Assembly: GCA_047456315.1 (NCBI GenBank)
Contig: CP179889.1
Location: 128,776-192,775, forward strand
Reading direction: 5' to 3'
From: Candidatus Nealsonbacteria bacterium
Lineage (GTDB): Bacteria > Patescibacteriota > Minisyncoccia > Minisyncoccales > JANBVM01
DNA length: 64,000 nucleotides
Shown here piece after piece: positions 8,448 to 53,529 of the stretch (the first letter of the stretch is position 1; every line of letters begins with the position of its first letter). The notes beneath the pieces were generated by a model, which was given only the letters and a program-made list of their open reading frames with translations, was not told where the DNA came from and did no database searches. The translations under genes were made by a program, and so were the position numbers.

Positions 8448-8470
8448 TGATAAATATTTAAATCTTTTAA

Positions 8471-9106: not shown

Positions 9107-9107
9107 A

Positions 9108-26662: not shown

Positions 26663-26699
26663 TTTTATTTTTTTATTTTTATTTAAATATTTTACATTT

Positions 26700-27974: not shown

Positions 27975-27975
27975 T

Positions 27976-28506
27976 TTAATATCTTCTTAGTGAGACAGTG
28001 GAAGTGGTATTTACTGATGCTTGATATTCTGGTTTATCGGAGGGAGCAATATAGCTAATTTCTAAATTTATCTGAATAGAATCTGTGCTTGTACTGGTAT
28101 TTACTTGAAAGAATTTTAAACTATCAACCTTTACTTTCTCAGAAGTTAAACCAGTTGGATTCTGGTTTTCTTTTTTTAAACAAACCTGATTCCCGCAAAT
28201 GAAGAAATCAATATAGCTTGTTTCCTCGCCTGTCTGAGCATAGTTTTCAGTTTCCAATGACAACTGGCCAGTACTGCTTGAGAAAACAGAAGTTGGGCTG
28301 TAAATACTCTGGGCATGCTTTATTTCATAAACAATTGTTTCTATAACTCTTTCACTATTATTTAATACTTCTTTTGATGCTTTAATTTTTACATTGGAGC
28401 GGTTAGCCCACAGAAAAAAAGAAGAGATTGCTAAAACAATGATTGATGAGACACTGATATAAATTAGGATTTCTGTAAGGGTAAAACCTCTTATTGTTTT
28501 TTTCAT
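27976..28506 (-). CDS. Prepilin-type N-terminal cleavage/methylation domain protein (minor pilin)
   Basis: ATG 28506 forms an ATGA overlap with the upstream stop. 'MKKTIRG|FTLTEILIYISV' is a class III signal. Confidence 0.75.
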   Translation of the reverse strand: MKKTIRGFTLTEILIYISVSSIIVLAISSFFLWANRSNVKIKASKEVLNNSERVIETIVYEIKHAQSIYSPTSVFSSSTGQLSLETENYAQTGEETSYIDFFICGNQVCLKKENQNPTGLTSEKVKVDSLKFFQVNTSTSTDSIQINLEISYIAPSDKPEYQASVNTTSTVSLRRY

Positions 28507-29009
28507 TTCCAGTTTGTTAAATAAGTTACTATCTCTATTTGGTGGTCTTTGTTTCTTTCCTGCCAACTGACAGTTGCTGTGATCTTTTTAGTATTTGGGT
28601 CATTGGTTCCTCCCATCTTAACAATATTATCCAGCCCATCTCTTTTTACTGTTTTAAAAACAATTTTTTTCGTAAAACCATTAATGGTTTCTGTTCCCTC
28701 AATTAACTGCCACTTCAGGGGTAAACCAGATTTTTCAATATAATAATTAATACCAGTGGTTAAACTTGCAATGCCATCTACGCTCCAATCAGTTGAATCT
28801 CTAAAGCTTCTGACTTGCTCTATTAATTCTTGGGCAATATTGTTTGCCTGAGAAGTTTGTTTTGTTAAACTGGTAGCATTTAAAGAAAAAGAAACAAGTC
28901 CTAAAAGACTTGTTAAACTAACAGTGATAATTGAAATAACTATTAATATTTCTATTAGCGATATCCCTTTTTGTTTGTTGGGCTTACTGCCAAACTGGTT
29001 CTGAAACAT
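28503..29009 (-). CDS. Prepilin-type N-terminal cleavage/methylation domain protein (minor pilin)
   Basis: 'KQKG|ISLIEILIVISIITV' class III signal. Start at ATG 29009 is preferred; the track start is 29048. Confidence 0.7.
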   Translation of the reverse strand: MFQNQFGSKPNKQKGISLIEILIVISIITVSLTSLLGLVSFSLNATSLTKQTSQANNIAQELIEQVRSFRDSTDWSVDGIASLTTGINYYIEKSGLPLKWQLIEGTETINGFTKKIVFKTVKRDGLDNIVKMGGTNDPNTKKITATVSWQERNKDHQIEIVTYLTNWK

Positions 29010-29892
29010 AAATAGAAGTTCCTTGAGTGGTTTGTCCACTGGCATCATAATTAATTAAATCACCGGTTGAATCGGCATCCAGCTCAATTTTCAAGGCTTT
29101 GTCATTGTATCTTTGATCTCTGTGTACACAGAATTGAGTTCCTAAAACAGGATCATTAAACCAGTGAGTGTGAATTTTTATTGTTTGAATTTCACCACTA
29201 ACATCAATATCACCTTCCCAGAAAAACTGGTCTTCTTGTATGTTATTGTTAATAATAATGGTTTCAGAAACACTAGAACTATTATAGAAAAAAGTAAGTA
29301 TCAAACTTTCTGAGTGTATATTTATTTGACGGCTGTAATCAAAATGAATGTGGCGTGAATCTTTAACTCTATTGCTGTCAGTAGGGACAACTTGCTCGTG
29401 AAAGATTTGTCCTGAGGGTTCAATAATAATGGCTCGTGTTTTTAAAACATCATTTTTTAATCTTAAAGAGATTTGGCCAGGATTAGCAGTCAGGCCGGTG
29501 ATCCTGTCAAAAACTACTTCCTGTCCGCTTCCAGCAAAATCAACTTCATAAATTTCAACCAAACTGGGAATCTTATAGTCCCTGTCAAAGGAAACGTCTC
29601 TGGAAGCATAATCAGTTCCCTTAAAAAGAACATATTCTTGCGGGCTGATGATTGAGAAATAAACACCCCAGTTGCTGCTTTGCTCTGAGGCCAGTGTTTT
29701 ACTTTGAGCTAATTTTAAAATATTGATTATTTCTTCAACGCTATTTATCAGGTCTGATTCTTTTTGAAAGTTGCGATAAGCTGGAATAGCAGTTGCTGTT
29801 ATAACAACCAAAATTCCAATTACTGTAAGCGTTTCAACAAGCGTGAATCCAGTACTCTGGATTTTATTTTTAGCCTTCACTCTTTTTATCAT
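28984..29892 (-). CDS. Prepilin-type pilin-like protein (302 aa)
   Basis: 'QSTG|FTLVETLTVIGILVV' class III signal. Directly downstream of pilC. Confidence 0.75.
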   Translation of the reverse strand: MIKRVKAKNKIQSTGFTLVETLTVIGILVVITATAIPAYRNFQKESDLINSVEEIINILKLAQSKTLASEQSSNWGVYFSIISPQEYVLFKGTDYASRDVSFDRDYKIPSLVEIYEVDFAGSGQEVVFDRITGLTANPGQISLRLKNDVLKTRAIIIEPSGQIFHEQVVPTDSNRVKDSRHIHFDYSRQINIHSESLILTFFYNSSSVSETIIINNNIQEDQFFWEGDIDVSGEIQTIKIHTHWFNDPVLGTQFCVHRDQRYNDKALKIELDADSTGDLINYDASGQTTQGTSIYVSEPVWQ

Positions 29893-31106
29893 ATATTTCC
29901 AAGCATGCTGTACATTGGTTGAACCATTGAAACTGCAAAAAAACCAATTGTAACTCCAATAATTATCATTAAAATTGGTTCAATCACAGCAGCCAGGTTT
30001 TTTGTGGTGTTGGATACCTCTTCTTCAAAAAAATCTGCTAATTCCGACAGAACAGTAGAGGTTTCACCAGTTTCTTCTCCTACAGCTATCATCTGGATAA
30101 CAATTAAAGGATAAACACCTTTATAGCCCGTTAAAACCTCAGATAATTTGCCTCCTTTTCTTACTTTTTCTGCTGCTTCATTCATGGCTGCTCTAAAATA
30201 GAAATTACCTAAAGTATTAGCAGTAATTTCCAGAGACCGGGGCAAAGAAACTCCTGCCCCAATCAGAGAACTTAAGTTTCTGGTTACATATGCAGAATTA
30301 GTTGCTTTAATGATTGAGGAGATAACAGGAATTTTTAAAAGTATTTTATCAGATATTTTTTTAACTGCTTCTATTTTTAAAATCCGTATTAAAAAAATAA
30401 TAAATACTATCAGTCCTAAAAATATTAAGTGCCAGTGACTTGCTACAAAAGTGCCAAAACCAATTACAACTTTTGTAGTAGCTGGAAGCTCAAGATTTAA
30501 ATCTTCAAATGTTTCAGCTAATTTTGGAACAACCATGATGAGCATCAGCGCTCCAACAGCAATCATGGCGCAGATAATTATGATTGGATAAATCATGGCG
30601 CTTTGTACCCTGGATATTAAAACATGCTCTTTTTCCATCTGCGCGCTTAGCGTTTCTAGAACTTTTTCCAGGGTTCCTGATTCCTCACCTACCTTCACCA
30701 TGCTTCTTAAAAGCTGAGGGAAAACTGAAGGATAAAAACTCATAGCTTCAGAAAGGCTTTTTCCCTCTACAATTCTATCTTTAATCTCTGACAGAGCTTT
30801 TCTAAATTCAGGAGTTTTTACCTGTTTTGACAAGGACTTGATTGCGCGAGGCAAGGGCAGTCCTGCTGCAATCATGACCTGAAGGTTTCTGACAAAAAAC
30901 ATCTTTTCTGTCAAAGGAACCCCGCCAAAAGTAGGAAGATCAATATTGAACTTTGATTTTTTTAATTCGTCTGATAATTGGGCCTTAATTAAAACAAATC
31001 CCTGAGCATGCAATTTCTGGGATAATTGATGCGTGTCTTTTGCTTCCAAAAATCCTGATTTCTCTTCTCCTTTAACAGATTTGGCTTTGTAAAAATATCT
31101 TGGCAT
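29889..31106 (-). CDS. pilC: Type IV pilus platform protein PilC (GspF family)
   Basis: 405 aa with a duplicated GspF domain and three TM segments. Located after pilB. Confidence 0.9.
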   Translation of the reverse strand: MPRYFYKAKSVKGEEKSGFLEAKDTHQLSQKLHAQGFVLIKAQLSDELKKSKFNIDLPTFGGVPLTEKMFFVRNLQVMIAAGLPLPRAIKSLSKQVKTPEFRKALSEIKDRIVEGKSLSEAMSFYPSVFPQLLRSMVKVGEESGTLEKVLETLSAQMEKEHVLISRVQSAMIYPIIIICAMIAVGALMLIMVVPKLAETFEDLNLELPATTKVVIGFGTFVASHWHLIFLGLIVFIIFLIRILKIEAVKKISDKILLKIPVISSIIKATNSAYVTRNLSSLIGAGVSLPRSLEITANTLGNFYFRAAMNEAAEKVRKGGKLSEVLTGYKGVYPLIVIQMIAVGEETGETSTVLSELADFFEEEVSNTTKNLAAVIEPILMIIIGVTIGFFAVSMVQPMYSMLGNI

Positions 31107-31114
31107 TTTAAAAT

Positions 31115-32860
31115 TTATTCAACTATTGCTCTTAACACCTCTTCAATAGAAGTTATTCCCTGAGCTGCTTTTATAAAACCATCTTCAATCATTGTTCTCA
31201 TTCCTTCGCTTCTGGCTTGCTGATGAATCTTGTCTGAGATTGCTTGAGCAATAATTAATTCTTTTATTGTTTCTGTAACTGGTAAAACCTCAAAAATCCC
31301 TATTCTTCCTTTGTAGCCGTCAGAGCACTCTTTACTAGGTTTTGGCTTGTAAAAAGGAATAGTTTTCCAGGTTGCTCTCTGGCTTACAATCTTTTCCTGT
31401 TTTAAGATTTTAAGGACTGCCTCCAGGTTACAATATTTTGAAATTTCTCTTAATTCAGAATCTTTAAGTTTGTATTTCTCTCTTTCACTGCAAAGCCTTC
31501 TTACCAGTCGCTGGGCTAAAATACAATTTAAGGTTGAGGCAATTAAAAATGGCTCGCATTTCATATCCATTAAACGAGGCAAGGTTCCGGCAGCAGAATT
31601 AGTGTGCAGAGTTGATAGAACCAAATGACCTGTTAAAGAGGCATTAATGCAAAGTCTGGCTGTTTCATTGTCTCTTATCTCTCCAACCATAATAATGTCT
31701 GGGTCTTGACGGAGCAATGACCTTAGTCCGTTTGCAAAAGTTAAGCCAATCTTCGCTCTCACCTGAGTTTGGTTGATTCTTGGCATCCTGTATTCAATAG
31801 GATCCTCAATTGTAGAAATATTTATTCCAGGATTATTTAAAATGTCCATCATTGAATAAAGGGTAGTGGTTTTTCCAGAACCAGTGGGTCCTGTTACTAA
31901 AATCATTCCCACTGGTTTTCGCAAAGAATCCTGGGTTCTTTCAAGGTTCTCTTCGATTAAACCTAATTGTTCTAAAGAGAAAGCTTCAGATGTTTCTGCT
32001 AAAAGCCTCATAACAACTTTCTCGCCATTGAAAACCGGAAGGATTGAAACCCTGATTGAATATTTGTAATCTTCAGTTTCTATTTTAAAACGGCCATCCT
32101 GAGGCAGACGATGTTCATCTAGTTTCAAATTAGAAAGCACTTTTATTCTGGCTACAATACCTGAAGATGCTAATTTTGGCAGAGTCATAGCGTCTCTTAA
32201 AATTCCATCAATCCTGTATCTGACTAAAACTTCTTTTTCAACTGGTTCAATATGAATATCTGAAGCGCGCTGTAAAATCGCATGCTTCATTAAAGTATCA
32301 ACAATTCTAATCACAGGCAGCTCTTCTGCTATTTTTTCCAGTTCAGCTTTTTCCTCCAGCTTTTCTTCTTTAACGGGCTTAATTACTCCAACTTCTTTTT
32401 TAATAATTTCCCCAAATTCAGCTTCCAGGGTCTTTTGATATTGGCGCAGAACGCTTTTTATTGATTTGGGGCTGGTTAAACGGGGTAAAATTTTTAAGCT
32501 GGTTGTTTTTTTAATGAATTCAATTGTTCTTAAATCTTTTGGGTCAAGCATTGCTACCTCTAAATTATTCCCTGTTTTTCTGAAAGCAACAATATTGTTG
32601 GAACGAGCAACTGGTTCTGGAATTATTTTCAAGAGCTTAGGATCAATCATTTCTTTCTCCAAATCAACAAAAGGAATGCCTAGAATATATGCTTCTAGCT
32701 TTATTAATTGCTCTTGATTAATCAAACCCTCTGAAACTAAAACATCACTAATTTCCTTTTTAGTTTTTTGAGCCTTTTTGTGCGCTTTGTTGAACTGTTC
32801 TTCAGTGAGCAAATTAGCATCAATTAAAAAGGCTTTTAGTTGTTGGGGCTCTACTTTCAT
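31115..32860 (-). CDS. pilB: Type IV pilus assembly ATPase PilB (GspE family)
   Basis: 581 aa. Walker A 'GPTGSGKTTT', an Asp box, Walker B 'DIIMVGEIRD' and a His box 'GHLVLSTLHT'. Confidence 0.93.
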   Translation of the reverse strand: MKVEPQQLKAFLIDANLLTEEQFNKAHKKAQKTKKEISDVLVSEGLINQEQLIKLEAYILGIPFVDLEKEMIDPKLLKIIPEPVARSNNIVAFRKTGNNLEVAMLDPKDLRTIEFIKKTTSLKILPRLTSPKSIKSVLRQYQKTLEAEFGEIIKKEVGVIKPVKEEKLEEKAELEKIAEELPVIRIVDTLMKHAILQRASDIHIEPVEKEVLVRYRIDGILRDAMTLPKLASSGIVARIKVLSNLKLDEHRLPQDGRFKIETEDYKYSIRVSILPVFNGEKVVMRLLAETSEAFSLEQLGLIEENLERTQDSLRKPVGMILVTGPTGSGKTTTLYSMMDILNNPGINISTIEDPIEYRMPRINQTQVRAKIGLTFANGLRSLLRQDPDIIMVGEIRDNETARLCINASLTGHLVLSTLHTNSAAGTLPRLMDMKCEPFLIASTLNCILAQRLVRRLCSEREKYKLKDSELREISKYCNLEAVLKILKQEKIVSQRATWKTIPFYKPKPSKECSDGYKGRIGIFEVLPVTETIKELIIAQAISDKIHQQARSEGMRTMIEDGFIKAAQGITSIEEVLRAIVE

Positions 32861-34531: not shown

Positions 34532-36061
34532 TTACTTTGCGTATTCTATCACTCTGCTTTCTCTTATTACATTAACTTTTATTTCTCCCGGATAACGCAA
34601 TTCCTCCTGGATTTTTCTGGCAATTTCTCTGGCCAAAACTTTGGCTTGAAAATCATCTATTTCTTCTGGTTTAACAAAAATCCTTATTTCTCTTCCTGCT
34701 TGAAGGGCCCAAGCTTTTTTAACTCCATTAAAATCTAAAGCTATATTTTCCAAGCTAGACAATCTTTTAAGGTAATTTTCTAAAGTGTCTTTTCTTGCCC
34801 CTGGTCTGGTGCCTGAAATCTGGTCTCCGACCTGGACAAGAATAGCTTCAATGCTGCTGTAAGGATATTCTTCGTGATGGGATTTCATTGCATCAATAAC
34901 CTCTTTTTCTATTTTAAATTTCTCTAAGATTTTTATCCCTATATCAACGTGAGAACCTTCTATCTGATGGTCAACTGCTTTTCCAATATCATGGAATAAT
35001 CCTGCTTTTTTACAGACTAAAGAATCAGCTCCAATTTCATCAGCTAAAAATGAAGATAAATATGCTACTTCAATTGAGTGAAGTAAAACATTCTGACCAT
35101 AACTTGTTCTGAACTTTAATCTGCCTAAAAGCTGCATTAGTTTTGGATCTAATCCAACCAGGCCAAGTTCATAAGCAGCCACCTCTCCAGCTTTTTTAAT
35201 CTGATTGCCTATCTCTTGCTTAGCTTCTTTAACCTTCTCTTCGATTCTGGCTGGTTGAATTCTTCCATCTAATATTAATTTTTCCAGTGCAAATTTAGCT
35301 ATGTGGCGCCTCACCGGGTCAAAGCCAGAAATTACAACTGTTTCTGGTGTTTCATCAACTATTATTTCTACGCCTGTTAATTTTTCAAGAGTTTTAATGT
35401 TTCTGCCTTCTTTGCCAATTATTCTTCCTTTAATGTCTTCATTGGGCAGAGCAACAGTAGTGGTGGTTGTTTCTTGGGTCTGGGATAAAGCATACTTTTG
35501 AATTGCAGTGACTAAAACCTCTTTAGCTTTTTTTTCATATCTTTCATATCCTTCTGTTTCTAATTTTCTTAATCTCTCTAAAATATCTAGCTGGTATTTA
35601 TCCTCTACTGCTTTTAAAAGCTTTTCTTTAGCTTCCTTTTTATTCATTTTGGCAACTTTTTCCAGTTTTTTGACAGCTTGATCCTTTAACTCTTCTAAAG
35701 AAGATTTAATTTGCCTTACTTTTTCTACTTTTTGTTCAAAATCTCTCTGATTTAATTCAAAATTAGATATTTTTTTATCTAAAACACTTTCTCTTTTTAA
35801 GAGCAGTTGTTCTCCCCTGATTAGTCTTTTTCTTGTTGCATATACTTCTTTTTTTGCATCATCCAATACAAAAGAAGCTTTGTTTTTAGCATTAGAGACA
35901 ATCTTAGCTGCCTCTTGAGTTGTTTTTTCAATCTTTTTTCGTATTTTCCCTTCAATTGTCTTCCAATCCTTTCTTGCTATTGACTGACGAGCATAATAAC
36001 CGAGCATTGTTCCAATTGAAAGAGAAACAATCCCTAGAATTAATAAGGTTAGTTGAGTCAT
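34532..36061 (-). CDS. rny: Ribonuclease Y
   Basis: 509 aa with an N-terminal TM, a coiled coil, KH ('GRIIGKEGRNIKTLEKLTGVEIIVD') and an HD domain ('GLFHDIGKAVDH'). Confidence 0.93.
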   Translation of the reverse strand: MTQLTLLILGIVSLSIGTMLGYYARQSIARKDWKTIEGKIRKKIEKTTQEAAKIVSNAKNKASFVLDDAKKEVYATRKRLIRGEQLLLKRESVLDKKISNFELNQRDFEQKVEKVRQIKSSLEELKDQAVKKLEKVAKMNKKEAKEKLLKAVEDKYQLDILERLRKLETEGYERYEKKAKEVLVTAIQKYALSQTQETTTTTVALPNEDIKGRIIGKEGRNIKTLEKLTGVEIIVDETPETVVISGFDPVRRHIAKFALEKLILDGRIQPARIEEKVKEAKQEIGNQIKKAGEVAAYELGLVGLDPKLMQLLGRLKFRTSYGQNVLLHSIEVAYLSSFLADEIGADSLVCKKAGLFHDIGKAVDHQIEGSHVDIGIKILEKFKIEKEVIDAMKSHHEEYPYSSIEAILVQVGDQISGTRPGARKDTLENYLKRLSSLENIALDFNGVKKAWALQAGREIRIFVKPEEIDDFQAKVLAREIARKIQEELRYPGEIKVNVIRESRVIEYAK

Positions 36062-39457: not shown

Positions 39458-39485
39458 TTGATTTTTTCTAATTTTAAGATAGAAT
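39458..39485 (+). promoter_or_regulatory. Sigma70-like promoter upstream of tRNA-Glu
   Basis: TTGATT (39458-39463), 16-nt spacer, TAGAAT (39480-39485), about 14 nt before the tRNA 5' end. Confidence 0.5.
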
Positions 39486-39499
39486 TAAAAACATAAAAT

Positions 39500-39571
39500 G
39501 GCCCCATCGTCTAATGGTCAGGACGGTAGATTTTCAATCTACTAATACGGGTTCGATTCCCGTTGGGGCCA
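39500..39571 (+). tRNA. tRNA-Glu (anticodon TTC)
   Basis: Acceptor GGCCCCA/TGGGGCC, anticodon arm GTAGA-TTTTCAA-TCTAC, T arm ACGGG-TTCGATT-CCCGT. Confidence 0.9.
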
Positions 39572-39572
39572 C

Positions 39573-41096
39573 ATGAAAAATTATCTCACTCTTTCAAGAT
39601 CAACGGATTTAGAATATTTAAAAGACAAAACCTTGTATCGTTTCCTGGAAATTCTTCCCGGATTTTTATCTTGGCTTACTTTAATTGGTGCGTTTCTATT
39701 ATCAGGATTATATCCAATAACAATTGCTATTTTCATAATTCTATTTGATTTTTACTGGCTTCTGAAAATCAGCTATTTGTCGTTTCATCAGATGGCAAGC
39801 TTTAGAAAAATGAGAAATAACCTTAAAACTGATTGGATGAGAAAATTGAATCAGGTTAAAAATTGGGAAAGAATCCATCATTTAATAATCTTACCTTTTT
39901 ATACTGAAAAAGAAGAAATAGTTAAAAGTTCATGCAAGGCATTGGTAGCCTGCAAATATCCCAAAAATAAAATGATGGTTATTTTAGCTACTGAGGAAAA
40001 AGCTGGAGAAGAGGCACAAAGAATAGCCAATCAATTAAGCAAAGAGTTCTCATCAAAGTTCTTAAAATTCTTAGTGACAATACATCCAAAGGACTTACCA
40101 GATGAGGTAGAGGGCAAGGGCTCGAATACAGCCTGGGCAATAAAGCAGGCAAAGGAAAAAATTATTAAACCGCTTAATATTAAAAAAGACAATATCATTG
40201 TTTCTACCTTTGATATTGATACAAAACCATATCCTCAGTATTTTACCTGTTTAACATATAATTATTTAACAGTTAAAAATCCAAATCGCTGTTCTTACCA
40301 ACCGATTCCTATTTATAATAATAATATCTGGACAGCTCCAGCTTTCTCACGTGTTATTGCTACATCAGGTACTTTCTGGCAAATGATGCAACAGGAAAGA
40401 CCAGAAATACTGGTTACTTATTCATCTCATTCAACTCCTTTCGAGGTTTTAGATGAAGTGGGCTATCCCAAGAACGTTGTTTCTGATGATTCAAGGATTT
40501 TCTGGAAGGCCTATCTTTTTTACGACGGCAATTACAAGGTTTTCCCTCTTCATTATCCAGTGTCAATGGATGCAGTTCTTGCTAAAAATCTAGGTAAAAC
40601 CATAGTCAATCAATACAAGCAACAAAGACGATGGGCCTGGGGATGTAATGACATTCCTTTTATGCTTTTCGGCTTTTTAAAGAATAAAAAAATTGCACTT
40701 TCCAGAAAGATTTCATACTCGCTAAGCGTGCTGGATGGATTTTGGTCATGGGCAACTGCTTCTTTTTTAATATTTTTCCTGGGCTGGCTTCCTTTAATGT
40801 TTGGTGGTGAAAAATTTAACGTAACGCTTCTTTCATATAACCTGCCAAGATTCACTGCTGATTTAATGAGATTATCTATGATTGGAATGATTATTTCATC
40901 AATAATCAGTCTTTTAATTCTTCCCCCAAAGCCAAAAAAACTTAGCAGGCTTAAAAATCTTTCAATGATTCTTCAGTGGCTGCTCTTGCCAATAACTTTA
41001 ATTGTTTTTGGCGGCATTCCTTCTTTGGATGCACAGACCAGATTAATGTTTAAGAAATATCTGGGTTTTTGGGTGACTGAAAAAGAAAGAGGATAA
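39573..41096 (+). CDS. Integral-membrane family 2 glycosyltransferase (cellulose-synthase-like)
   Basis: 507 aa with TM helices at both ends, a central GT-A-like region ('STFDIDTKP') and a 'QQRRWAWG' (QxxRW) motif. The ATG begins 1 nt after the tRNA-Glu 3' end. Confidence 0.65.
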   Translation: MKNYLTLSRSTDLEYLKDKTLYRFLEILPGFLSWLTLIGAFLLSGLYPITIAIFIILFDFYWLLKISYLSFHQMASFRKMRNNLKTDWMRKLNQVKNWERIHHLIILPFYTEKEEIVKSSCKALVACKYPKNKMMVILATEEKAGEEAQRIANQLSKEFSSKFLKFLVTIHPKDLPDEVEGKGSNTAWAIKQAKEKIIKPLNIKKDNIIVSTFDIDTKPYPQYFTCLTYNYLTVKNPNRCSYQPIPIYNNNIWTAPAFSRVIATSGTFWQMMQQERPEILVTYSSHSTPFEVLDEVGYPKNVVSDDSRIFWKAYLFYDGNYKVFPLHYPVSMDAVLAKNLGKTIVNQYKQQRRWAWGCNDIPFMLFGFLKNKKIALSRKISYSLSVLDGFWSWATASFLIFFLGWLPLMFGGEKFNVTLLSYNLPRFTADLMRLSMIGMIISSIISLLILPPKPKKLSRLKNLSMILQWLLLPITLIVFGGIPSLDAQTRLMFKKYLGFWVTEKERG

Positions 41097-41149
41097 ACCT
41101 AAAAATTGGTTATTTATTATTTTCATTGTATAATTATTTATATAAGCCC

Positions 41150-41875
41150 ATGAATAATTTTTTAAACTACCCTTTATACATTTTCTTTGGAGTACTGCCC
41201 AGTATAATCTGGCTTTCGTTTTATTTAAAAAGAGATTCTCATCCTGAGCCAAAGAAAATGATTTTAAAAATCTTTTTTTACGGAGCATTAATAACCATAC
41301 CCGCAATTTTACTGGAAACAATTTTTTTTGAAGGAACAAGAAGATTGGGCCTGTCACCTCTTATCATATTTTGCCTAAACATTTTTTTGGGAGTAGCCCT
41401 AATTGAAGAGGCTTTAAAGTTTTTAGTGGTTAAAATAAAAGTTCTTAATAATCCTGAATTTGATGAACCAGTTGATTCAATGATTTATATGATAATTGCA
41501 GCACTAGGATTTGCCGCAGCTGAGAATTTACTGATTTTGTTCCCGCTTCAAAGCCCCTTTTTAGGAGAAATATTTGAAATTTCTTTTTTAAGATTTTTGG
41601 GAGCTACTTTTCTTCATGCGCTGTGCTCTGCTGTAGTGGGATTCTTTATTGGACTTTCTTTTTACAAAAAAGAAAAAAGGAGCAGATTGGTTTTCATTGG
41701 TCTTAGTTTGGCAATAATATTGCACGGTTTATATAATTTCTCTATAATTAAAGTTGAGAAAGGTTTAAATCTTTTAATATCATTTACTCTTTTAATAATT
41801 ACTGCGATTTTTATTTCAGAAGCATTTAAAAAATTAAAAAATTTAGCTAAGGCTAAAAGAGATCAGATAATTTAA
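41150..41875 (+). CDS. PrsW-family intramembrane metalloprotease
   Basis: Polytopic, with 'EEALKFL' and 'FLHALCSAVVG' motifs. ATG 41150 is preferred over TTG 41126, which overlaps a TATAAT box at 41129-41134. Confidence 0.75.
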   Translation: MNNFLNYPLYIFFGVLPSIIWLSFYLKRDSHPEPKKMILKIFFYGALITIPAILLETIFFEGTRRLGLSPLIIFCLNIFLGVALIEEALKFLVVKIKVLNNPEFDEPVDSMIYMIIAALGFAAAENLLILFPLQSPFLGEIFEISFLRFLGATFLHALCSAVVGFFIGLSFYKKEKRSRLVFIGLSLAIILHGLYNFSIIKVEKGLNLLISFTLLIITAIFISEAFKKLKNLAKAKRDQII

Positions 41876-41883: not shown

Positions 41884-42492
41884 ATGGCCAGTTCATTTTT
41901 AGAAAAACTTAAAAAAGGAATGGGAGTTGAGGAATTGGAGAAAATGGAAAAAACTGCTGAAAAAACAGAAGAAGCTCCTGTTGAAAAAAAGAAAGAAGAA
42001 AAAATAATTAAAAAAGAAGTTGTTAAAAAAACTGTCAAAACAAAAGCTAAAAAAGCTCTTGGTTCAGTGAAAAAGAAAGAAAAGGTTGAAATAGAAAAAA
42101 TTGAGAAAGAGATACCAGCACCAGCCCCTATTTTAGCAAAAGAAGAAAAAGAAAGCTGGCCTCAGCTAGAAGGTCAGTTAGCTGTTGATGTTTATCAAAC
42201 TGATTTAGAATTAGTCATACAGTCAGCTATTGCTGGGGTAAAACCAAATAACATAGATGTTTCGATTGATGACGACGTTGTTACAATAAAAGGAAAAAGG
42301 AATAAAATATCTGCTGAAGAAGGGGACTATTTTTATCAGGAATGCCACTGGGGAGCATTTTCACGTCAAATAATCTCACCTGTTGAAATTAACCCAGGAA
42401 GAGTTGATGCAAGCTTGAAGGATGGAATTCTAACAATCAGAATTCCTAAAATTGTAAAAGACAAGAAGACAAAGATAGTAATAAAAGGGTGA
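41884..42492 (+). CDS. Hsp20/alpha-crystallin family small heat-shock protein with Lys/Glu-rich N-terminal extension
   Basis: C-terminal ACD: 'LAVDVYQTDLELVIQSAIAGVKPNNIDVSI..VVTIKGKR' ... 'GAFSRQI..P..V....V.ASLKDGILTIRIPK'. Confidence 0.85.
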   Translation: MASSFLEKLKKGMGVEELEKMEKTAEKTEEAPVEKKKEEKIIKKEVVKKTVKTKAKKALGSVKKKEKVEIEKIEKEIPAPAPILAKEEKESWPQLEGQLAVDVYQTDLELVIQSAIAGVKPNNIDVSIDDDVVTIKGKRNKISAEEGDYFYQECHWGAFSRQIISPVEINPGRVDASLKDGILTIRIPKIVKDKKTKIVIKG

Positions 42493-42715: not shown

Positions 42716-43156
42716 TTATCCTAACCCCAAGACATTGCTTACTACTGCTGGAATGGCATTAGCCAGAAGAGCAACTGCTAAACCAATTATTGCGTTCCTT
42801 ATATAATCTCTTCCTTTAGTTACCTGTTCAGCATTTCCACCAGCTGTAAGGATACTATAACCTCCAAATATTGCCATAATTGCTGAAACAGTTACCACTC
42901 CGAGAAATATCCAGTTAGTTGCTTTTAGTATTGTATTCAGTGTACAGCACATGGCACAGTCATGATATTCATCATCAAACTCACAATCAACACCACCTGT
43001 AATAACAGTAGGACAACGAATGCCAGCGTAATCGTTAATCTTTGTTTCAGTTAGAATACATTTTGTAGCTGGTTCATCCAGAGCCAAAATCATGACAGGC
43101 ATTGCCAATGAAAGCATCACTACAGCAATAGGTATTATTAAAAGGCTCTTTTTCAT
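42716..43156 (-). CDS. T4SS pilin-like protein with Cys-rich ectodomain
   Basis: 146 aa with a signal peptide, 7 Cys (including 'DCAMCC') and a C-terminal TM-loop-TM '...FGGYSILTAGGNAEQVTKGRDYIRNAIIGLAVALLA'. Confidence 0.6.
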   Translation of the reverse strand: MKKSLLIIPIAVVMLSLAMPVMILALDEPATKCILTETKINDYAGIRCPTVITGGVDCEFDDEYHDCAMCCTLNTILKATNWIFLGVVTVSAIMAIFGGYSILTAGGNAEQVTKGRDYIRNAIIGLAVALLANAIPAVVSNVLGLG

Positions 43157-43224
43157 TTTAATTTCTAAATTGTATGATTATCACTTTTTTCTTTCTTCTT
43201 CTCGACCTTTTTCTTTTTTAAAAA

Positions 43225-43572
43225 CTAATTAACTCCTAATAAATTTTCTATTACTGCCATTATACCCTTTGCAAATAAAATTATCAAAAAACCAATAATT
43301 GTCCAAAGAATAATATTTCTTGCTCTTTGGGTTTGTTCCAGATTTCCTCCTGCTGTAACAAATAAGAATCCTGCTATAACAACCATTAAGGGGGCTAAAA
43401 CAATAGCAATATTAAAGATAAAATCAATAAGATTATCGATAATATCTTCAAATTGTGTGCCTTCTGCTAAAGGGTTTTCAATTACTATTACGTCAGCACT
43501 CAAAGTGCCTGCAATCATAACCAGAATAAAACTAATTAAGAAAAGTGGTTTTAAAAATTTTGTTTTCTCCAT
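43225..43572 (-). CDS. T4SS pilin-like protein
   Basis: 115 aa with a signal peptide and 'VVIAGFLFVTAGGNLEQTQRARNIILWTIIGFLIILFA' (TM-loop-TM). Confidence 0.6.
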   Translation of the reverse strand: MEKTKFLKPLFLISFILVMIAGTLSADVIVIENPLAEGTQFEDIIDNLIDFIFNIAIVLAPLMVVIAGFLFVTAGGNLEQTQRARNIILWTIIGFLIILFAKGIMAVIENLLGVN

Positions 43573-44136: not shown

Positions 44137-47100
44137 TTAGATACAGGCTACAGAAGCAACTTTATCATTTGGATTAAGCTTCATTATTCTAACCCCTTGG
44201 GTTGATCTTTTTTGTTTTGATATAGAGTCAACCTTAATTCTTATTACCTGGGCCTGGCGGGATATAGCAATTAAATCTTCTTCTTTTTGATTTAAAATCT
44301 TGGAGGCAATTAATTCACCAGTTTTTTTAGTAATATTTGCTGTTTTAATGCCTGTTCCTCCTCTTTTTTGAAGGCGATACTCTCTAATATCTGTTCTTTT
44401 TCCATAGCCATTCTCACTTACAACCAGCAAGTATTTTTTAACTTTCTTTTCTTTAGTTTCTTTTGCAATAACATCCATGCCTATTAATTCATCTCCTTTC
44501 TTTAATCTTATTCCTGTTACTCCAGCAGCTGGACGGCCCATTGACCTGATGTCTTTTTCTTTAAATCTTACGGACATTCCTTTTTTAGTAACTAGAATGA
44601 CTTCATCATCACCGCTGGTTTTGCAAACCTTTTCAAGTAAATCTCCTTTTCTTAAAGATATGGCTATTAATCCTGAACGTCTGACGTTTTTGAATTCACT
44701 AAGGCTAGTTTTTTTAACTATTCCTTTTTTAGTTGCCATTGCCAGATATTTTGCTTCTTCGCCGTTTTTGTCCTGCTTGTTTATTGGAATAATTGATAAA
44801 ACCTTGTCATGCCTTGATAATTCCAAGAAGTTTAAAAGACCGCGTCCTTTGGCAACCCTTGAACCTTTTGGAATTTCATAAACCAAAGTTTTAAACACTT
44901 TTCCTGAATCAGTGAAAAACAACAATTCATCATGAGTGTTGGCGATTAAGAAATGCTCAACAATATCATCGCTAACTGTTTTCATGCCAAGTATTCCTTT
45001 CCCGCCTCTTCTTTGAGTCTTATAGGCCTTGGGGTCAATTCTTTTAATATATCCTCCCTGGGTTAAAGTAATTATCGCCTCTTCTTTGGGAATTAAATCC
45101 TCTTCAGATATTTTATCTATCTTTGAGATAACAAGCTTTGTTCTTCTTTCATCTCCGAAGGTTTCTTTTGTCTGGCGCAGCTCTTTTTTAATAATAGTTT
45201 TAATTTTAGCCGGGCTTTTTAAAATAGCAGTCAATTCTTTTATTTTTTCAATCAGTTCTTTTAATTCCTCTTCAAGTCTTTTCCTTTCTAGTTTCGCCAA
45301 GGCTGATAATTTGGTATCTAAAATTGCATTTGTCTGGATTTCTGTTAATTTAAAACGCTTCATTAAATTTTTCTTGGCATCTTCTCTGTCTTTTGATTTT
45401 TTAATTGTTTCAATAACAGCATCAATCCTGGCAAGACATTTTTTAAGACCTTCTAAGATATGAGCGCGTTGCTTGGCTTTCTTCAGTTCATACTTTGCTC
45501 TTCTTGCAACCACTTCTTTTCTGTGGGCAATAAAGTAAGTTAAAATATCTAATAAGTTTAAAACTTTTGGCTGGGAGCCATCAACTAAAGCTAAAATATT
45601 TAAATGAAATGTACGCTGCAAGTCAGTAAACTTATAAAGCTGATTCAGAATTCTTTGAGCAATTACATCTCTTTGGAGCTCTATAACAATTCTCATTCCT
45701 TCTTTGTCTGATTCATCCCTTATATCTTTAATGCCCTCAATTCTTTTTTCTGAAACCAGTTTTGCTAGCTGTTCAAGCAGGTTTGATTTTTGAACTTGGA
45801 AAGGAATTTCAGTTATTAAAATTTGCAGTCTTTCTTTCTTGCTTTCTACTATTTCAGCTTTTCCACGAGTTAAAATTGGTCCTTTGCCCTGTGAGTAGGC
45901 CTCAATAATAGCCTTTTTGTCATACATAAACCCTCCTAAAGGAAAATCTGGACCTTTAATAAATTTAAATAAATCTATAGTATTTGATTTAGGATTGTCA
46001 ATTAAATAGATCAAAGCATCACAAACCTCATTTAAATTATGAGGTGGAATATTTGTTGCCATACCAACAGCAATACCCAGACAACCATTAAGTAAAAGCT
46101 GAGGCAGAGGTGAGGGCACAACCAAAGGTTCTTTTCTAGTTCCATCATAATTATCAACAAAATCAACAGTGTCTTTTGAAATGTCTTTTAACATTTCTTC
46201 TCCTTCTTTCGAGAGACGCATTTCGCTGTACCTCATGGCGGCATATTCAGATGGGTCGTCAATTGAATTATGGACAAAAATTCCAGCTGCCAAGGCGAAA
46301 TTATGCCATGTATCAATGGTCAAATCATAAACATCTTCTCTCTTAGAAAAAATCTTGGTTTTTACTACTTTATGATTACGTTTTTGAGCTTCCACTAAAA
46401 TCTCTGAAAAATTATCGAAATAACTTAAAGCATTCTCTATTTTAGGAACACCGTTATTAATTCTTTCTTTTTCATACGTCTCAGGATTAACTTTTGAATG
46501 TTTATTTAAAAGAGCGTAAACAAATCTTAAAATCTTAGTTTTTATAACTTTTTCTTTGTAAGCGGGATCTCGCCATTTTTTATGCAAAGAAGCCTTAGCT
46601 TTCTGGATTAGTTCTTTCATCAGGGCAGGATTTTCTTTTAAGCGACGATAATTAGAGGAAGTGACTCCAGTTATAATTTTTTTTCTAAATTCTGGATTTT
46701 GCCACTGAGCGCGAGCTTTTTCCCTGTGAAGTTCTCGAATCTTCGGATCTTTCCACATTTCTTTTGCCATTTTCTTAAAATAGTCCTTAGAATACTTTGC
46801 TTGATGTTCAGGATTTTGCCACATTTTTTTTAGCGCATCTTTGACTTTCTGCCGGTAATCAGAATTTTTCCATAGTTTTTTGGAAATCTTGCTTTGTCTA
46901 ATTCGCAATAAAGGATTATTATATTTTTCTTTCATTAATCTGGACATATGTTCCCGATATTCTGGATTTTGCCACATTTTAAGAGCGCTTTCTCTCAATT
47001 CTTTAATCTTACAAGCCCGATATTCTTTATCCTGCCATCTTCTCTTCATCTCTACTGATTTTAAACAACTCAATAATTTTTGGAAACTTTTCTTTTCCCA

Positions 47101-48240
47101 TAATTTTTTAAGGTTTTTACTTGAAGCTTTTCTCATAAAATCTTTATATTCTGGGTCCTTCCACATCTTTCTCCTTGCTTCTGTCCAGACCATTCTATAT
47201 TTTGGATCTTTCCACATTTTTTTATTCATTTCAGCTCTTTCTTGAGCACGAAGCTCTCTGTTTTCTTTTTTAGACCACCATTTTTTTCTTCCCTCAGCAA
47301 GTTTTTTTACATAATCAGGATTATTATGTCTTTGAGAGGCAATCTTTTTATGATAATTCCAATGATCTTTCCACTGAATCCTTAAAATATTATCGGGGTT
47401 GTTGTTTAATTTATTAAAATCTTTATGATGCCTTATTCTGCCCGCCTTTTTTTCATAAATTCCGTTTTCAAGATTCCATTCATCGGCTAAACGATGAACA
47501 AATTCCCATTTTTCCATTACCGGCTGACGTATTATTTCGTAACCTTTTAAGTTTTTGTCTTCTTTGCCATCGTAAAGTTTTGCATACAACGGCATTAAAG
47601 AGTCGCCTGGTTTTAAAAACCTGGCTTCTTTGTAGTTTCCATTTCTCAACATGAATCGGTGGTCTAGCGTACACTTAATCTTCTCTCCATTATCTAAGGT
47701 AACTTCTATTATCTCTTCGTTTTTTCTGGTTAATTTTGGATTTTTGATTTCAGCAATTTCAATTTTTTTAGCTTTAGAGTTAAAAGCAAACGTCCAGTGT
47801 CTTTTTCCTTTAACCTTTTCTTTTATTAGTTCTCCAAAAGTTAAGCTTCTGCCATCGCAAAGCTTTACTTTAGTGTCTTTTGTAAAACAACCCATATTCC
47901 CTTGACCTTGGATTAAAGGATATCTTAAGGAAAAATCCTGTGCCATTCTTACGGCTGCTCCATAAACCGCTTGATCTGAATGGGGATGATAACGACCCAG
48001 GGTTGAACCAACAACAGTGGCTGATTTCCTGAATTTTGCATTGTGGCGCAATCCATCTTCAAGCATTACATAAAGAATTCTTCTTTGAACTGGTTTTAAT
48101 CCATCTCTTACATCAGGCAAGGCACGTGAAATTATCACTGACATTGCATAGTCAATGTATGACTCCTTCATTTCTTCAACAATTTCTCTTGGTTGAACAG
48201 TTCCAATAGATGTATTTTTATCTTTTTTATCTTTTTCCAT
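44137..48240 (-). CDS. gyrA: DNA gyrase subunit A, interrupted by a 541-aa intein
   Basis: 1367 aa. The exteins total 826 aa: '..[35 protein letters not shown]' | intein | '[18 protein letters not shown]..'. The C-terminal beta-pinwheel region is present. Confidence 0.95.
46267..47889 (-). mobile_element. Intein in gyrA (Hint domain + HNH endonuclease motif + tandem basic repeats)
   Basis: Cys1 '[13 protein letters not shown]' (block A), 'TLDHRF' (block B), and C-terminal '[22 protein letters not shown]|S' (blocks F/G). HNH-like '[28 protein letters not shown]'. I checked the boundaries codon by codon. Confidence 0.9.
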
Positions 48241-48243: not shown

Positions 48244-48969
48244 TTAATTAGAAACTTCTTCTAAATTATTTAAGGCATTATTTAAATGCTTTGGCAGTTT
48301 TGATTTAAATTCTTTTTCACTGCCATCTGGTATTTTAATTTTTAAAATGCTCGCGTGTAAAAATTGTCGTTTTAAGCCGTTTGGTTCAACCTGGTTTTTA
48401 AAGCCATACATTTTATCTCCGCAGACTGGATGATTTAAGTACTGAAAATGTGCTCTTATCTGGTGCTTTCTACCGGTTTTGATTTCAACTTCAACTAAAG
48501 TATATTTATTTTTCTTTTTATCAATAAACCTTTTCAAGACATTATAATTTGTAACTGCCTGTCTTTTATTTTCTGCCCCTGGTTCAAAAGGTAGATATAC
48601 TTTTTGTTTTTTTCTATCTTTTAATCCACGACCAATTAAAGTATCAATAACTCCCTTTTCTTTTTTAACTTCACCATTAACTAAAGCAATATACTTTTTA
48701 ATAACTTTCCTTTGCTGAAATTGCTTTTGTAAAAAAAACAAAGTTTCGTTATTTTTAGCCACTAACAATAATCCTGAGGTGTCTTTGTCTAATCTGTGAA
48801 CTATTCCATATCTTGGGGCTTCACCAACATTTTTCAAATTCTGATATTTTTTAACAAGCAAATCAATTAATGTTTTTTCATCTGTTTTATCTTCTCTAAA
48901 AACTATTATTCCTGCTGGTTTATCAGCTACTAATAAATTTTTATCTTCAAAAACAATATTGATTTTCAT
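48244..48969 (-). CDS. RluA-family pseudouridine synthase
   Basis: 241 aa with 'VADKPAGIIV' and the catalytic 'HRLDKDTSGLLLVAK'. The ATG begins 1 nt after the tRNA-Val 3' end. Confidence 0.88.
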   Translation of the reverse strand: MKINIVFEDKNLLVADKPAGIIVFREDKTDEKTLIDLLVKKYQNLKNVGEAPRYGIVHRLDKDTSGLLLVAKNNETLFFLQKQFQQRKVIKKYIALVNGEVKKEKGVIDTLIGRGLKDRKKQKVYLPFEPGAENKRQAVTNYNVLKRFIDKKKNKYTLVEVEIKTGRKHQIRAHFQYLNHPVCGDKMYGFKNQVEPNGLKRQFLHASILKIKIPDGSEKEFKSKLPKHLNNALNNLEEVSN

Positions 48970-48970: not shown

Positions 48971-49044
48971 TGGGCGATATAGGACTTGAACCTATGACCT
49001 TCACAATGTCAATGTGACGCGCTAGCCAACTGCGCCAATCGCCC
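48971..49044 (-). tRNA. tRNA-Val (anticodon GAC)
   Basis: Acceptor GGGCGAT/ATCGCCC, anticodon arm TCACA-TTGACAT-TGTGA, T arm ATAGG-TTCAAGT-CCTAT. Confidence 0.9.
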
Positions 49045-49048: not shown

Positions 49049-49120
49049 TGGGCATGCCAGGGATCGAACCTGGGACTTCTACTTTATAAGAGTAGCGTTC
49101 TGCCACTGAACTACATGCCC
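49049..49120 (-). tRNA. tRNA-Ile (anticodon TAT)
   Basis: All four stems are perfect: acceptor GGGCATG/CATGCCC, D GTTC/GAAC, anticodon arm CTACT-CTTATAA-AGTAG, T CCAGG-TTCGATC-CCTGG. Confidence 0.85.
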
Positions 49121-49129: not shown

Positions 49130-51037
49130 CTACACGCGTTTAACGCTTACTTTTATCTGCTTTCCTTTTTTTGCTTTTGTTTTTAAAACTTTTATCTTTC
49201 TTGAATTTTTCTTTCCAATCAAGCTTTCAAATTCCTCTTTTTCAATAATTTCTTTATCAATCAAAGTTTTAGCAATCTTATCAAGCAATCTTTTTCTTTT
49301 TATTAAAATTTTCTTGGCCTTGCTTTCAGCTTCTTTTATAAACCTACTAACTTCTTTGTCAATTGATGCAGCTACTTGTTCAGAATAATTTCTCTGTTCG
49401 CCCAGTTCTTTTCCTAAAAATATCAGTTCTTCTTTCTCGCCAAATGATATTGGACCCAAAGAACTCATGCCATATCTTTTGACAAGTTTTCTTGCCAAAT
49501 CAGATGCTTTTTTTAAATCATTTGAAGCTCCGGTTGTAATATCTTTAAATTTTAATTTTTCAGCAACATATCCTCCAAGAAGTGTTGACATTTCTGATAA
49601 AAACTCGCTCTTTGTTTTCATTCTCTTGTCTTTTCCCGGCATTTGCAGGGTGTAGCCAGCTGCCATTCCTCTGGCAATAATTGAAATCTTTCTTATTGGT
49701 TCAGTATTTGGTAAAGACGCAGATACTAGAGCATGACCTGCTTCATGATAAGCAGCAATTGCTTTTTCTTCTTTGTTTAAAATATGGCTTTTCCTTTCTG
49801 GTCCTAACAGCACTTTTTCTATTGATTCTAAAACTTCTGTTTGATAAACCTGATTTTTATCTCTTCTGGCAGCTAATATTGCAGCCTCGTTCATAATATT
49901 TGCTAAATCAGCTCCAGAAAATCCAGGAGTTCTCTCAGCAACTTCTCTTAGTTTTACATCAGGAGCTAATGGTTTTTCTCTTGCATGAATCTTTAAAATC
50001 TGTTCTCTGTCATTTATATCAGGCAGGTCTAAAACTATTCTTCTGTCAAACCTGCCTGGACGAAGCAGGGCTGGATCTAAAATATCAGGTCTGTTAGTAG
50101 CTGCAAGAACGATTCTTGTGTCATTTCTTTCAAAACCATCCATTTCAACCAGAATTTGATTTAAGGTCTGTTCTCTTTCATCATGTCCCCCTCCAATCCC
50201 AGCTCCTCTCATCCTGCCGACAGCGTCAAGTTCATCAATAAAAATTATTGATGTCCCGGCTTTTTTGGCAGTATTAAATAAATCCCTTACTCTGCTTGCA
50301 CCCACACCTACAAACAATTCTACAAAAGTTGAACCAGATGTGTGGAAAAAAGGAACATTGGCTTCTCCTGCCACTGCCCGGGCCAGTAATGTTTTTCCAA
50401 CTCCAGCTGGACCTAACAATAAAACTCCTCTTGGAATTCTGGCTCCCATTTTCAAAAACTTTTTTGGATATTTTAAAAAGTCAACAACCTCCTTTAATTC
50501 TTCTTTTGCCTCTTTTAGCCCTGCAACATCTCGAAAAGTTGTTTTATTCTTTTTATGGCCTTCAGCCCCGAATAACCTGGCCCTTGCTTTTGTAAAATCA
50601 AAAGCCTGCATAGAACCAGCTTTACTTTGTTTGAACATTGACCAGAAAAAGAAAACTAGAATTAAAACTGGAACAACTGAGAAAAGAAGGGGTGCTAACC
50701 AAGCCCAAGTGCCACCAGCGCCTTTTGTTTCAACCTCAATTTTTGCTAACTTTTCCTTTTCTATTCCGTAATTAAGCAATGACTGAGAGAGGCTGGATTC
50801 ATCTTCTTTGCGCGAGGTTGCTCTTGAATCATCCTGAAAAATAATATCAAGGTCATTCCCAGCAACAGTTATTTTTTTAATCTGCCCTTCATTGATTTCA
50901 TTGGCTAATTGAGAAAATGAGAGCTTTTCAATTTCGCCAAAAGGCTGATAAAACAAACTAAAAACTGCTGAGATAAGTAAAAAAATTAACAAAATTGTTA
51001 TGAAATTTTTAGCCAAATTTTTCATTTTAACAAACAA
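49130..51037 (-). CDS. ftsH: ATP-dependent zinc metalloprotease FtsH
   Basis: 635 aa with two TM helices, Walker A '[11 protein letters not shown]', 'IIFIDELDA', SRH, and the zinc motif 'HEAGHAL'. The start may be ATG 51025. Confidence 0.95.
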
Positions 51038-53431: not shown

Positions 53432-53445
53432 CTACTTAAATTCAT

Positions 53446-53529
53446 GCCCAGGTGATGAAATTGGTAAACATGCCACCTTGAGGTGGTGGTGGGGGCAACT
53501 CCTTGTGGGTTCGAGTCCCACTCTGGGCA
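53446..53529 (+). tRNA. tRNA-Leu (anticodon GAG)
   Basis: Acceptor GCCCAGG/TCTGGGC (one G-U pair), anticodon arm CCACC-TTGAGGT-GGTGG, a long variable arm, T arm GTGGG-TTCGAGT-CCCAC. Confidence 0.88.

Follow-up and report, generated by a model that had tools for sequence, protein, structure and literature searches.

A tRNA gene one nucleotide from a start codon: candidate tRNA-punctuated, leaderless mRNAs in Nealsonbacteria

How can a messenger RNA (mRNA) be translated when its start codon directly follows the body of a transfer RNA (tRNA)? The question is raised by a stretch of 64,000 nucleotides (nt) from the chromosome of a Candidatus Nealsonbacteria bacterium (contig CP179889.1, positions 128,776 to 192,775; G+C content 33.7%), referred to here in its full length as the window. 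In it, the gene for tRNA-Glu(UUC) lies immediately upstream of a coding sequence (CDS) for a membrane glycosyltransferase of the GT2 family. An earlier note on this DNA had proposed that the glycosyltransferase mRNA is punctuated by the tRNA and effectively leaderless. At the level of sequence this reading is supported, as every prediction tried holds. The best explanation, which we consider probable, is that tRNA and protein gene are co-transcribed, that the tRNA is excised, and that a 5′-monophosphorylated mRNA beginning with (C)AUG is freed and translated by leaderless-type initiation.

The direct abutment of the two genes is confirmed by reading the junction, which runs ...CCCGTTGGGGCC-A-C-ATG-AAA-AAT on the plus strand. 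The tRNA-Glu(UUC) gene extends from G1 to the discriminator A73 at 39500-39571 (ARAGORN; Rfam RF00005, 70.9 bits), with the 3′ strand of its acceptor stem, TGGGGCC, at 39564-39570 and the discriminator A at 39571. The CDS for the 507-residue glycosyltransferase, taken from the open reading frame (ORF) list and carrying a weak Pfam PF13632 match, occupies 39573-41096 of the same strand, its ATG being 39573-39575. The junction described in the earlier note is thus borne out exactly, with the tRNA end, the single nucleotide and the start codon at 39571, 39572 and 39573. The sole nucleotide separating discriminator and ATG is the C at 39572. ARAGORN counts it into the tRNA and places the 3′ boundary at 39572, and the Rfam tRNA model ends at the discriminator, 39571. 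The note had spoken of a single separating C; the nucleotide is present, but it is almost certainly position 74 of the tRNA and not a spacer. In the minimum-free-energy structure of the tRNA-Glu-GT2 precursor, the cloverleaf is formed and the mRNA remains free of pairing over its first 20 nt. The Rfam scan of the window returned 19 tRNAs and nothing else, and two of these 19 abut a start codon.

A short distance to the tRNA would lose its meaning if the start had been mis-assigned and translation really began downstream, giving the mRNA a normal leader. Candidates exist in codon 21 (TTG) and codon 74 (ATG), and the annotated start of one homologue, P0024, corresponds to residue 25. Upstream, the frame is closed within the tRNA-Glu gene by a TAA at 39543-39545, and ATG 39573 is the first possible start after it; the next in-frame methionine is residue 74. 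The NCBI protein of the source metagenome-assembled genome is 100% identical over 507 amino acids and is annotated from the same ATG. Among 7874 database relatives, the best 120 are nearly all full-length (505-511 amino acids, query coverage 99-100%), and the N-termini of homologues align from residue 2 or 3 (M-K-N-Y-L-x-L-S-x-A-x-D-L...). Residues 3-26 (NYL.LS.A.DL...LYR.LE) are kept at the protein level in more than 100 homologues; an alignment of 37 GT2 sequences shows no variation at Y4 or E26, and conservation of 90% or more at L13, Y22 and R23. Since codons 3-26 are under protein-level selection, translation begins at or before codon 3. Both downstream candidates are ruled out by the conservation of the N-terminal 25 residues as protein, and a mis-assigned start is accordingly a most improbable explanation. 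On this comparative evidence the start codon is secure and only ATG 39573 qualifies, as the earlier note had argued from the missing alternatives. For the annotation of these genomes, it follows that a start codon in contact with a tRNA gene should be left in place and not "corrected" to a later one.

The arrangement is found well beyond the window. A comparison set was assembled of 80 loci that encode the GT2 protein at 53-72% identity, with one genome scanned per species. A same-strand tRNA-Glu(UUC) gene lies upstream in 70 of the 80 species loci, or 71 of 81 with the window. In 30 of these 71 loci, the window included, the ATG lies at most 2 nt from the tRNA-Glu discriminator. The distance is 1 nt in 21 loci, again counting the window, of which 19 have a C between the two and the others are L003 and L016. 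It is 2 nt in nine, five of which read CC-ATG, so that the last base of an encoded CCA is also the first of the start codon. Distances of 5-34 nt occur in 20 of the 71 loci, and of 40 nt or more in 21. One further locus that is truncated by a contig end, L024, also abuts (...GGGGCC-G-C-ATG). On a neighbour-joining tree of the GT2 proteins the abutting state is scattered and requires about 16 parsimony changes. Judged from this distribution, abutment is recurrent and labile, not one inherited quirk.

Two relatives carry partial copies of the tRNA near the glycosyltransferase. In L023 (~9980-9997), an 18-nt copy of the tRNA-Glu 3′ end, GATTCCCGTTGTGGCCAC, 17 of 18 positions identical, is fused to a GTG start of the GT2 gene and sits 108 nt downstream of an intact tRNA-Glu. 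In L033, a similar 19-nt remnant of the 3′ end stands ~30 nt upstream of the GT2 start and 365 nt downstream of the intact tRNA. These remnants look like att-type duplications, left by an insertion into a tRNA gene whose ancestral state was abutting.

The same boundary stands out when all tRNAs are considered. A census of the distance between tRNA 3′ ends and start codons, of a kind that the earlier note had suggested genome-wide, covered 279 tRNAs in the window and the 80 species loci and recorded the offset from the discriminator of ATGs opening ORFs of at least 100 codons. It yields a peak of 43 ATGs at an offset of 1 nt (40 with C74 and three with G or T at position 74), followed by 11 at 2 nt and 5 at 3 nt. 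Any single offset from 4 to 60 nt holds at most 5 ATGs, and a true offset of 0 nt does not occur. Three junctions that had been scored as offset 0 (L003, L016 and L055) are really offset 1, with G or T at position 74, after correction of the 8-bp acceptor assigned by ARAGORN. The choice of start codon also differs with distance. Starts at offsets 0-3 comprise 59 ATG, 1 TTG and no GTG, versus 46 ATG, 9 TTG and 7 GTG at offsets 4-60. This bias is in the direction expected if a 5′-terminal AUG is needed, which would fit an AUG preference of leaderless mRNAs that is strong as an Escherichia coli rule and weaker in actinobacteria (PMC3848588).

Four junction families in the clade share the pattern N73-C-ATG. 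Besides tRNA-Glu(UUC) followed by the GT2 gene, these are tRNA-Arg(GCG) followed by a RecG-like helicase of ~700 amino acids with a conserved N-terminus, in at least 16 species; tRNA-Val(GAC) followed by an RluA gene, in the window and in L001, with gaps of 7 nt in L007 and 34 nt in L002; and tRNA-Ser(UGA) followed by a gene for a 183-residue protein. The tRNA-Val(GAC) case is the second abutting junction of the window, and the statement of the earlier note that the tRNA-Glu arrangement is repeated there proves correct. On the minus strand the sequence reads ...TATCGCCC-A-C-ATG-AAA-ATC. The tRNA-Val(GAC) gene (48971-49044; ARAGORN, Rfam) ends with its discriminator A at 48971, a C at 48970 occupies position 74 as the only nucleotide before the ATG, and the ATG (48969-48967) opens the CDS for a 241-residue pseudouridine synthase of the RluA family (48244-48969; Pfam PF00849).

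This second junction lies in a longer gene series on the minus strand, in the order rpsA (S1), ftsH, 9 nt, tRNA-Ile, 3 nt, tRNA-Val, C74, rluA, 3 nt, gyrA. The tRNA-Ile(UAU) gene occupies 49049-49120 (ARAGORN, Rfam), between ftsH and tRNA-Val, and the stop codon of the FtsH CDS (49130-51037; Pfam, sequence) is 9 nt upstream of it. Scanning the final ~320 nt of ftsH for promoters turned up no match to the consensus, and therefore tRNA-Ile and tRNA-Val appear to lie inside a long operon. Some features of this region are of separate interest. The gyrA gene (44137-48240, minus strand) encodes 1367 amino acids and is interrupted by an intein at about residues 132-658 (Pfam Intein_splicing match). 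The anticodon of tRNA-Ile is UAU, instead of that of the usual bacterial tRNA-Ile2 with CAU and lysidine, and the placement of tRNA-Ile(UAU) next to tRNA-Val(GAC) is conserved in L001 and L002. Elsewhere in the window, on the plus strand, the stop codon of rplS (L19) stands 14 nt upstream of a same-strand tRNA-Leu-GAG (53431-53446). As ftsH and rplS both end just before same-strand tRNAs, cleavage by ribonuclease (RNase) P would also set the 3′ ends of these mRNAs.

Is the glycosyltransferase gene transcribed together with its tRNA? A promoter-like element noted earlier, TTGATT-16-TAGAAT, is present upstream of tRNA-Glu on the plus strand (consensus scan), its -35 hexamer at 39458-39463 and its -10 hexamer at 39480-39485, separated by a 16-nt spacer and ending 14 nt before the tRNA. 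Its score of 9/12 against the consensus is weak alone, as such matches are common in the AT-rich window (25, versus 16.8 +/- 4.6 in shuffles); the call is rescued by conservation across species. An orthologous element, TTGATTTTTTTCAATTTTTnnGnTAnAAT, ends ~5-30 nt before tRNA-Glu in most species, with the spacer also conserved. A strict promoter pattern is found at 32 loci within 60 nt of tRNA-Glu and at 5 more further upstream, so that at least 37 species keep the orthologous motif. Transcription would then start at about 39492, leaving a 5′ leader of ~8 nt for removal by RNase P. Conservation of the spacer hints at something beyond -35/-10 recognition. The motif was also considered as a general promoter of the genome and rejected, since its relaxed pattern is not enriched in the window (31, versus 22.7 +/- 4.5 expected); the strict form is essentially confined to the orthologous tRNA-Glu promoter. 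On the minus strand, tRNA-Arg(UCU) is preceded by a comparable sequence, TTGATTTTATTTGATTTTAAGCTAAAAT, at 24062-24079.

Between tRNA-Glu and the ATG there is no room for a promoter or a terminator. A -10 box for a transcript starting at the ATG itself is missing as well, the required position reading CGTTGG within the GC-rich acceptor strand. A promoter inside the tRNA-Glu gene was also considered; TACTAAT occurs at 39540-39546 in the window, but relatives have no TAnnnT there, and this candidate was dropped. Hairpins followed by T-runs, of the kind that act as terminators, occur within ~40 nt after tRNAs without a following gene (Gly-UCC, Leu-UAG, Val-UAC and Leu-UAA), and none is found after tRNA-Glu or tRNA-Val(GAC). 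Co-transcription of tRNA and protein gene is thus well supported as an inference. On the same strand follow a CDS for a PrsW-family intramembrane protease (41126-41875, exact start uncertain; Pfam PF13367, E = 3e-33) and one for Hsp20 (41884-42492; Pfam PF00011), the final gene before the convergent tRNA-Leu(UAG) and its terminator-like hairpin (42530-42514, minus strand).

The earlier note had stressed that no Shine-Dalgarno (SD) sequence can exist outside the tRNA body. This is true, but it is not a peculiarity of the glycosyltransferase gene, as SD motifs show no enrichment ahead of genes in the clade. An SD core (GGAG, GAGG or AGGA) at positions -20 to -4 is present in 4 of 60 window genes and in 11% of 844 clade ORFs, versus 13% in a control window. 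Judged by these counts, initiation in these organisms is SD-independent throughout. A second signal concerns leaderless transcripts. Hexamers of the form TAnAAT pile up shortly before ATGs: positions -7 to -10 hold the final T of the hexamer in 28, 17, 21 and 15 cases (81 in total), versus a background of about 3-5 per position, and a TTG 16-18 nt upstream accompanies 43% of the ATG-proximal hexamers versus 19% of distant ones. Such a pile-up is the standard genomic signature of transcripts starting at the A of the ATG, so the ribosomes of the clade evidently handle leaderless mRNAs routinely. Altogether, the clade seems to depend on initiation that is leaderless and needs no SD. Examples of TAnAAT boxes in the window precede the genes at 62762-63235 and 5854-6243, both on the minus strand. 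Known ribosome geometry suggests that the path of the mRNA leaves no place for a folded tRNA just 1 nt away from the AUG, and therefore release of the mRNA by processing is the simplest route to its translation.

Abutment could also be the product of pure compaction, the spacer having been deleted up to the tRNA and expression being served by a promoter or start hidden in the tRNA gene, or by SD-like pairing of the acceptor strand. The genome is very compact, with many CDS-CDS gaps of 0-3 nt, the abutting state has often been gained and lost, and in the window TGGGG stands 5-9 nt before the ATG. A hidden promoter is opposed by the sequence of the region, the GC-rich T-arm and acceptor stem, which offers no suitably spaced TAnnnT either in the window or in relatives. 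For SD-like pairing, the acceptor strand differs among species (TGGGGCC, TAGGGCC, TAGCGGC and TGGGACC) and contains no conserved SD-like element; where one exists it is buried in the acceptor helix, and SD motifs are not used in the clade. Use of the acceptor TGGGG in place of an SD was rejected on these grounds, the strand being variable between species and base-paired. Compaction with a hidden signal agrees badly with the species comparison and is, in our judgement, quite unlikely.

Release of the mRNA by tRNA processing, the explanation preferred here, directs attention to the one nucleotide that the two genes leave between them. In the window, a C directly follows the discriminator in 17 of the 19 tRNA genes (for instance at 39572, 48970, 42543, 53530 and 53610), and full CCA is encoded in 2 of the 19. 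Among the 279 clade tRNA genes, position 74 is C in 262 (94%) and CCA is complete in 56 (20%), the commonest trailers being CAT, CCA and CAA. CCA is encoded at neither abutting junction of the window, where tRNA-Glu and tRNA-Val(GAC) are each followed by C-A-T. With a C content of ~17% in the genome, this frequency of C74 is far beyond chance, and start codons never intrude on position 74; it follows that C74 belongs to the tRNA gene and is under selection.

An encoded C74 without C75 and A76 is unusual and suggests a constraint, either from RNase P or from a 3′ cut after C74. A conserved G in loop L15 of the RNase P RNA is the pairing partner of C74, and with G at position 74 cleavage of the substrate slows more than 100-fold (PMC1874595). 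Through this pairing, an encoded C74 would help 5′ maturation before CCA is added. The 3′ cut may also lie beyond C74 and thereby leave this nucleotide on the tRNA, an explanation that is compatible with the one from RNase P. The position of the 3′ cut relative to C74 decides whether the released mRNA starts with C-AUG or with AUG. In Bacillus subtilis, the CCA-less gene trnSL-Ala1 has U74 and A75 (PMC1874595). A full CCA blocks classical RNase Z (PMC1874595).

These observations can be joined into a mechanism, held probable as stated above. The tRNA-Glu and glycosyltransferase genes, and probably also those for PrsW and Hsp20, would share a single transcript driven by the conserved promoter (39458-39485). 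RNase P would cut at G39500 and remove the short 5′ leader, and a tRNA 3′ endonuclease, RNase Z or a functional equivalent, would cut at or beside position 73/74. The released tRNA-Glu would be completed to CCA by a nucleotidyltransferase, and the same cut would free a 5′-monophosphorylated mRNA starting with C-AUG or AUG. This mRNA would be translated by 5′-end-dependent, SD-independent initiation of the leaderless type. The same logic may apply to the series from ftsH through tRNA-Ile and tRNA-Val to rluA and gyrA, where tRNAs would punctuate a long operon. The sequences establish the anatomy and the start codon, the conserved promoter and junction, the missing SD enrichment, the promoter signature of leaderless transcripts and the ATG bias; co-transcription, cleavage site, enzyme and mode of initiation are all predicted from them.

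The window itself encodes part of a processing machinery. RNA-processing-type proteins recognized by Pfam are RnpA (3835-4176, plus strand), RNase Y (34532-36061), PNPase (20993-23128), an NYN-domain protein and a NUDIX protein only. The NYN-domain protein (PF01936; 23149-23652, minus strand) is a putative ribonuclease; its gene follows tRNA-Arg(UCU) at a distance of 303 nt and immediately precedes that for PNPase.

Alternatively, tRNA and mRNA could be mutually exclusive fates of one transcript. RNase Y or RNase J would cut inside the CDS and PNPase would trim the 3′ end back to C74, so that tRNA maturation destroys the mRNA and the glycosyltransferase is made only from a minority of unprocessed transcripts that still carry the tRNA. 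RNase Y and PNPase are encoded in the window, no RNase Z is seen there, and trimming would naturally halt at an encoded C74. In the five species with CC-ATG, moreover, the A of CCA is the A of the ATG, and a mature tRNA and an intact AUG cannot come from one molecule. Translation with the tRNA attached is difficult to reconcile with ribosome geometry, since a tRNA 1 nt upstream would fill the space of the mRNA exit channel. The almost exclusive use of ATG and the pile-up at a single offset are hard to explain if the exact 5′ boundary is irrelevant, and conserved genes of the housekeeping type (RecG-like, RluA) are in the abutting position in many species. Mutually exclusive fates, the foremost of the rival readings, are considered an unlikely account.

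Several points weigh against excision and release as proposed here. Neither an RNase Z nor a CCA-adding enzyme is among the 60 proteins of the window (ORFs of at least 90 amino acids, Pfam). Since C74 belongs to the CCA end that acts as an anti-determinant of classical RNase Z, the cutting enzyme or its site may be unusual. Counts from the census are phylogenetically non-independent, as the four junction families lie in one syntenic region. The ~16 switches on the GT2 tree, together with SD-less leaders of 5-60 nt in many relatives, mean that abutment is tolerated, not strictly required, and it may reflect deletion pressure more than selection. Finally, the 5′-exonuclease RNase J is retained in the Candidate Phyla Radiation (CPR) (PMC12641178), and a 5′-monophosphorylated mRNA would be a good substrate for it.

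A bolder version of the proposal extends to the group. In Nealsonbacteria and allied Parcubacteria, tRNA excision could be a regular route to translatable leaderless mRNAs, with an endonuclease that cuts after the encoded C74. The tRNA would then need only C75 and A76 to be added, and the mRNA would begin exactly with AUG. A cut at this point would explain both why position 74 is C in 94% of tRNA genes although CCA is not encoded and why starts pile up exactly at that boundary and never closer. We offer this generalization tentatively and regard it as rather doubtful.

The CPR or Patescibacteria make up a large share of bacterial diversity, and translation initiation and RNA processing are experimentally unstudied in them. 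Should the proposal be true, the logic of mitochondrial punctuation would be no organelle oddity but would also have been reached by free-standing, strongly size-reduced bacterial genomes. The expression of membrane, repair and RNA-modification genes would be tied to tRNA promoters, and an unusual 3′-processing specificity linked to the hard-wired C74 would be predicted. For dozens of species, the RNA ends that the proposal predicts can be given to the exact nucleotide. A search of the searchable literature library returned nothing on tRNA-generated leaderless mRNAs in CPR or other bacteria, which is weak negative evidence, and nothing relevant on SD usage, RNase Z or the CCA-adding enzyme in CPR/Patescibacteria.

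Other features of the window bear less directly on the junctions. An ORF of 276 amino acids with a LAGLIDADG homing-endonuclease domain (57130-57960, plus strand) reads through tRNA-Cys (57884-57955, plus strand) to a TAA at 57958-57960. With no stop before the tRNA, the mRNA of this ORF would lose its stop codon if the tRNA were excised. The neighbourhood of the replication origin (845-5334) contains dnaN (845-1969) and dnaA (2122-3471) on the minus strand and, beside dnaA on the plus strand, rnpA, yidC (4179-4889) and a jag/KhpB-like gene (4858-5334). A set of regions (5854-9509, 42716-43572, 62762-63235 and 25529-32860) holds several small genes resembling type IV secretion system pilins (PF18895), a TraG-like ATPase and a PrgI-like protein, and adjoining these a type IV pilus cluster (PilM, T2SSF, T2SSE/PilB) with a two-component system.

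Which known systems does the arrangement resemble? The closest parallel is tRNA punctuation in mitochondria, reportedly described by Ojala, Montoya and Attardi in 1981. There, excision of tRNAs by RNase P and RNase Z defines the ends of mRNAs, which carry 0-3 nt before the AUG, lack an SD and are initiated in a 5′-end-dependent manner. In both cases, tRNA genes abut same-strand protein genes with almost no spacer, and tRNA and neighbour can share nucleotides, as at CC-ATG in the five species. Unlike the mitochondrial case, the present one concerns a bacterial chromosome of ~0.65 Mb in which 2 of the 19 window tRNAs abut a start, and it is a prediction from sequence. A further difference is that the tRNAs here are served by a conserved promoter of their own, of the sigma-70 type, with intrinsic terminators in use at other places.

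Operons that join tRNAs to a protein gene are established in bacteria, an example being thrU-tyrU-glyT-thrT-tufB of E. coli. In the archaeon-type case of T. kodakarensis TK0306, a tRNA-Lys lies in a 159-nt 5′ untranslated region (PMC4247193). As predicted for the Nealsonbacteria locus, one promoter serves tRNA and protein gene in these systems, and the tRNA is cut out. Both differ in that a normal leader with a ribosome-binding region follows the tRNA, whereas only tRNA position 74 does so here. Processing of a neighbouring transcript by tRNA enzymes is also a feature of tRNA-like t-elements and of tRNA-snoRNA (small nucleolar RNA) dicistronic precursors, which are cut by RNase Z in plants and Nanoarchaeum (mentioned in PMC4247193). 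As in those systems, tRNA-processing enzymes would set the neighbour's ends, and L023 keeps an 18-nt remnant of the tRNA 3′ end at its start; unlike a t-element, this remnant may be a mere insertion scar.

With B. subtilis, the clade shares tRNA genes without encoded CCA and a Gram-positive-type set of RNases (RNase Y, PNPase, RnpA). In contrast to the 94% of C74 found here, the CCA-less genes of B. subtilis do not keep C74 (PMC1874595). The leaderless mRNAs of Actinobacteria, Deinococcus and archaea (PMC4633059, PMC3848588) are similar in that the predicted 5′ end lies no more than ~1 nt from the AUG and no SD is present; the clade likewise has a -10 box ending ~7 nt before the ATG. Unlike theirs, which arises by transcription initiation and bears a 5′-triphosphate, the 5′ end at the tRNA junctions would arise by processing and bear a 5′-monophosphate. 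The scheme can thus be viewed as a putative bacterial variant in which mitochondrial tRNA punctuation is combined with bacterial leaderless translation.

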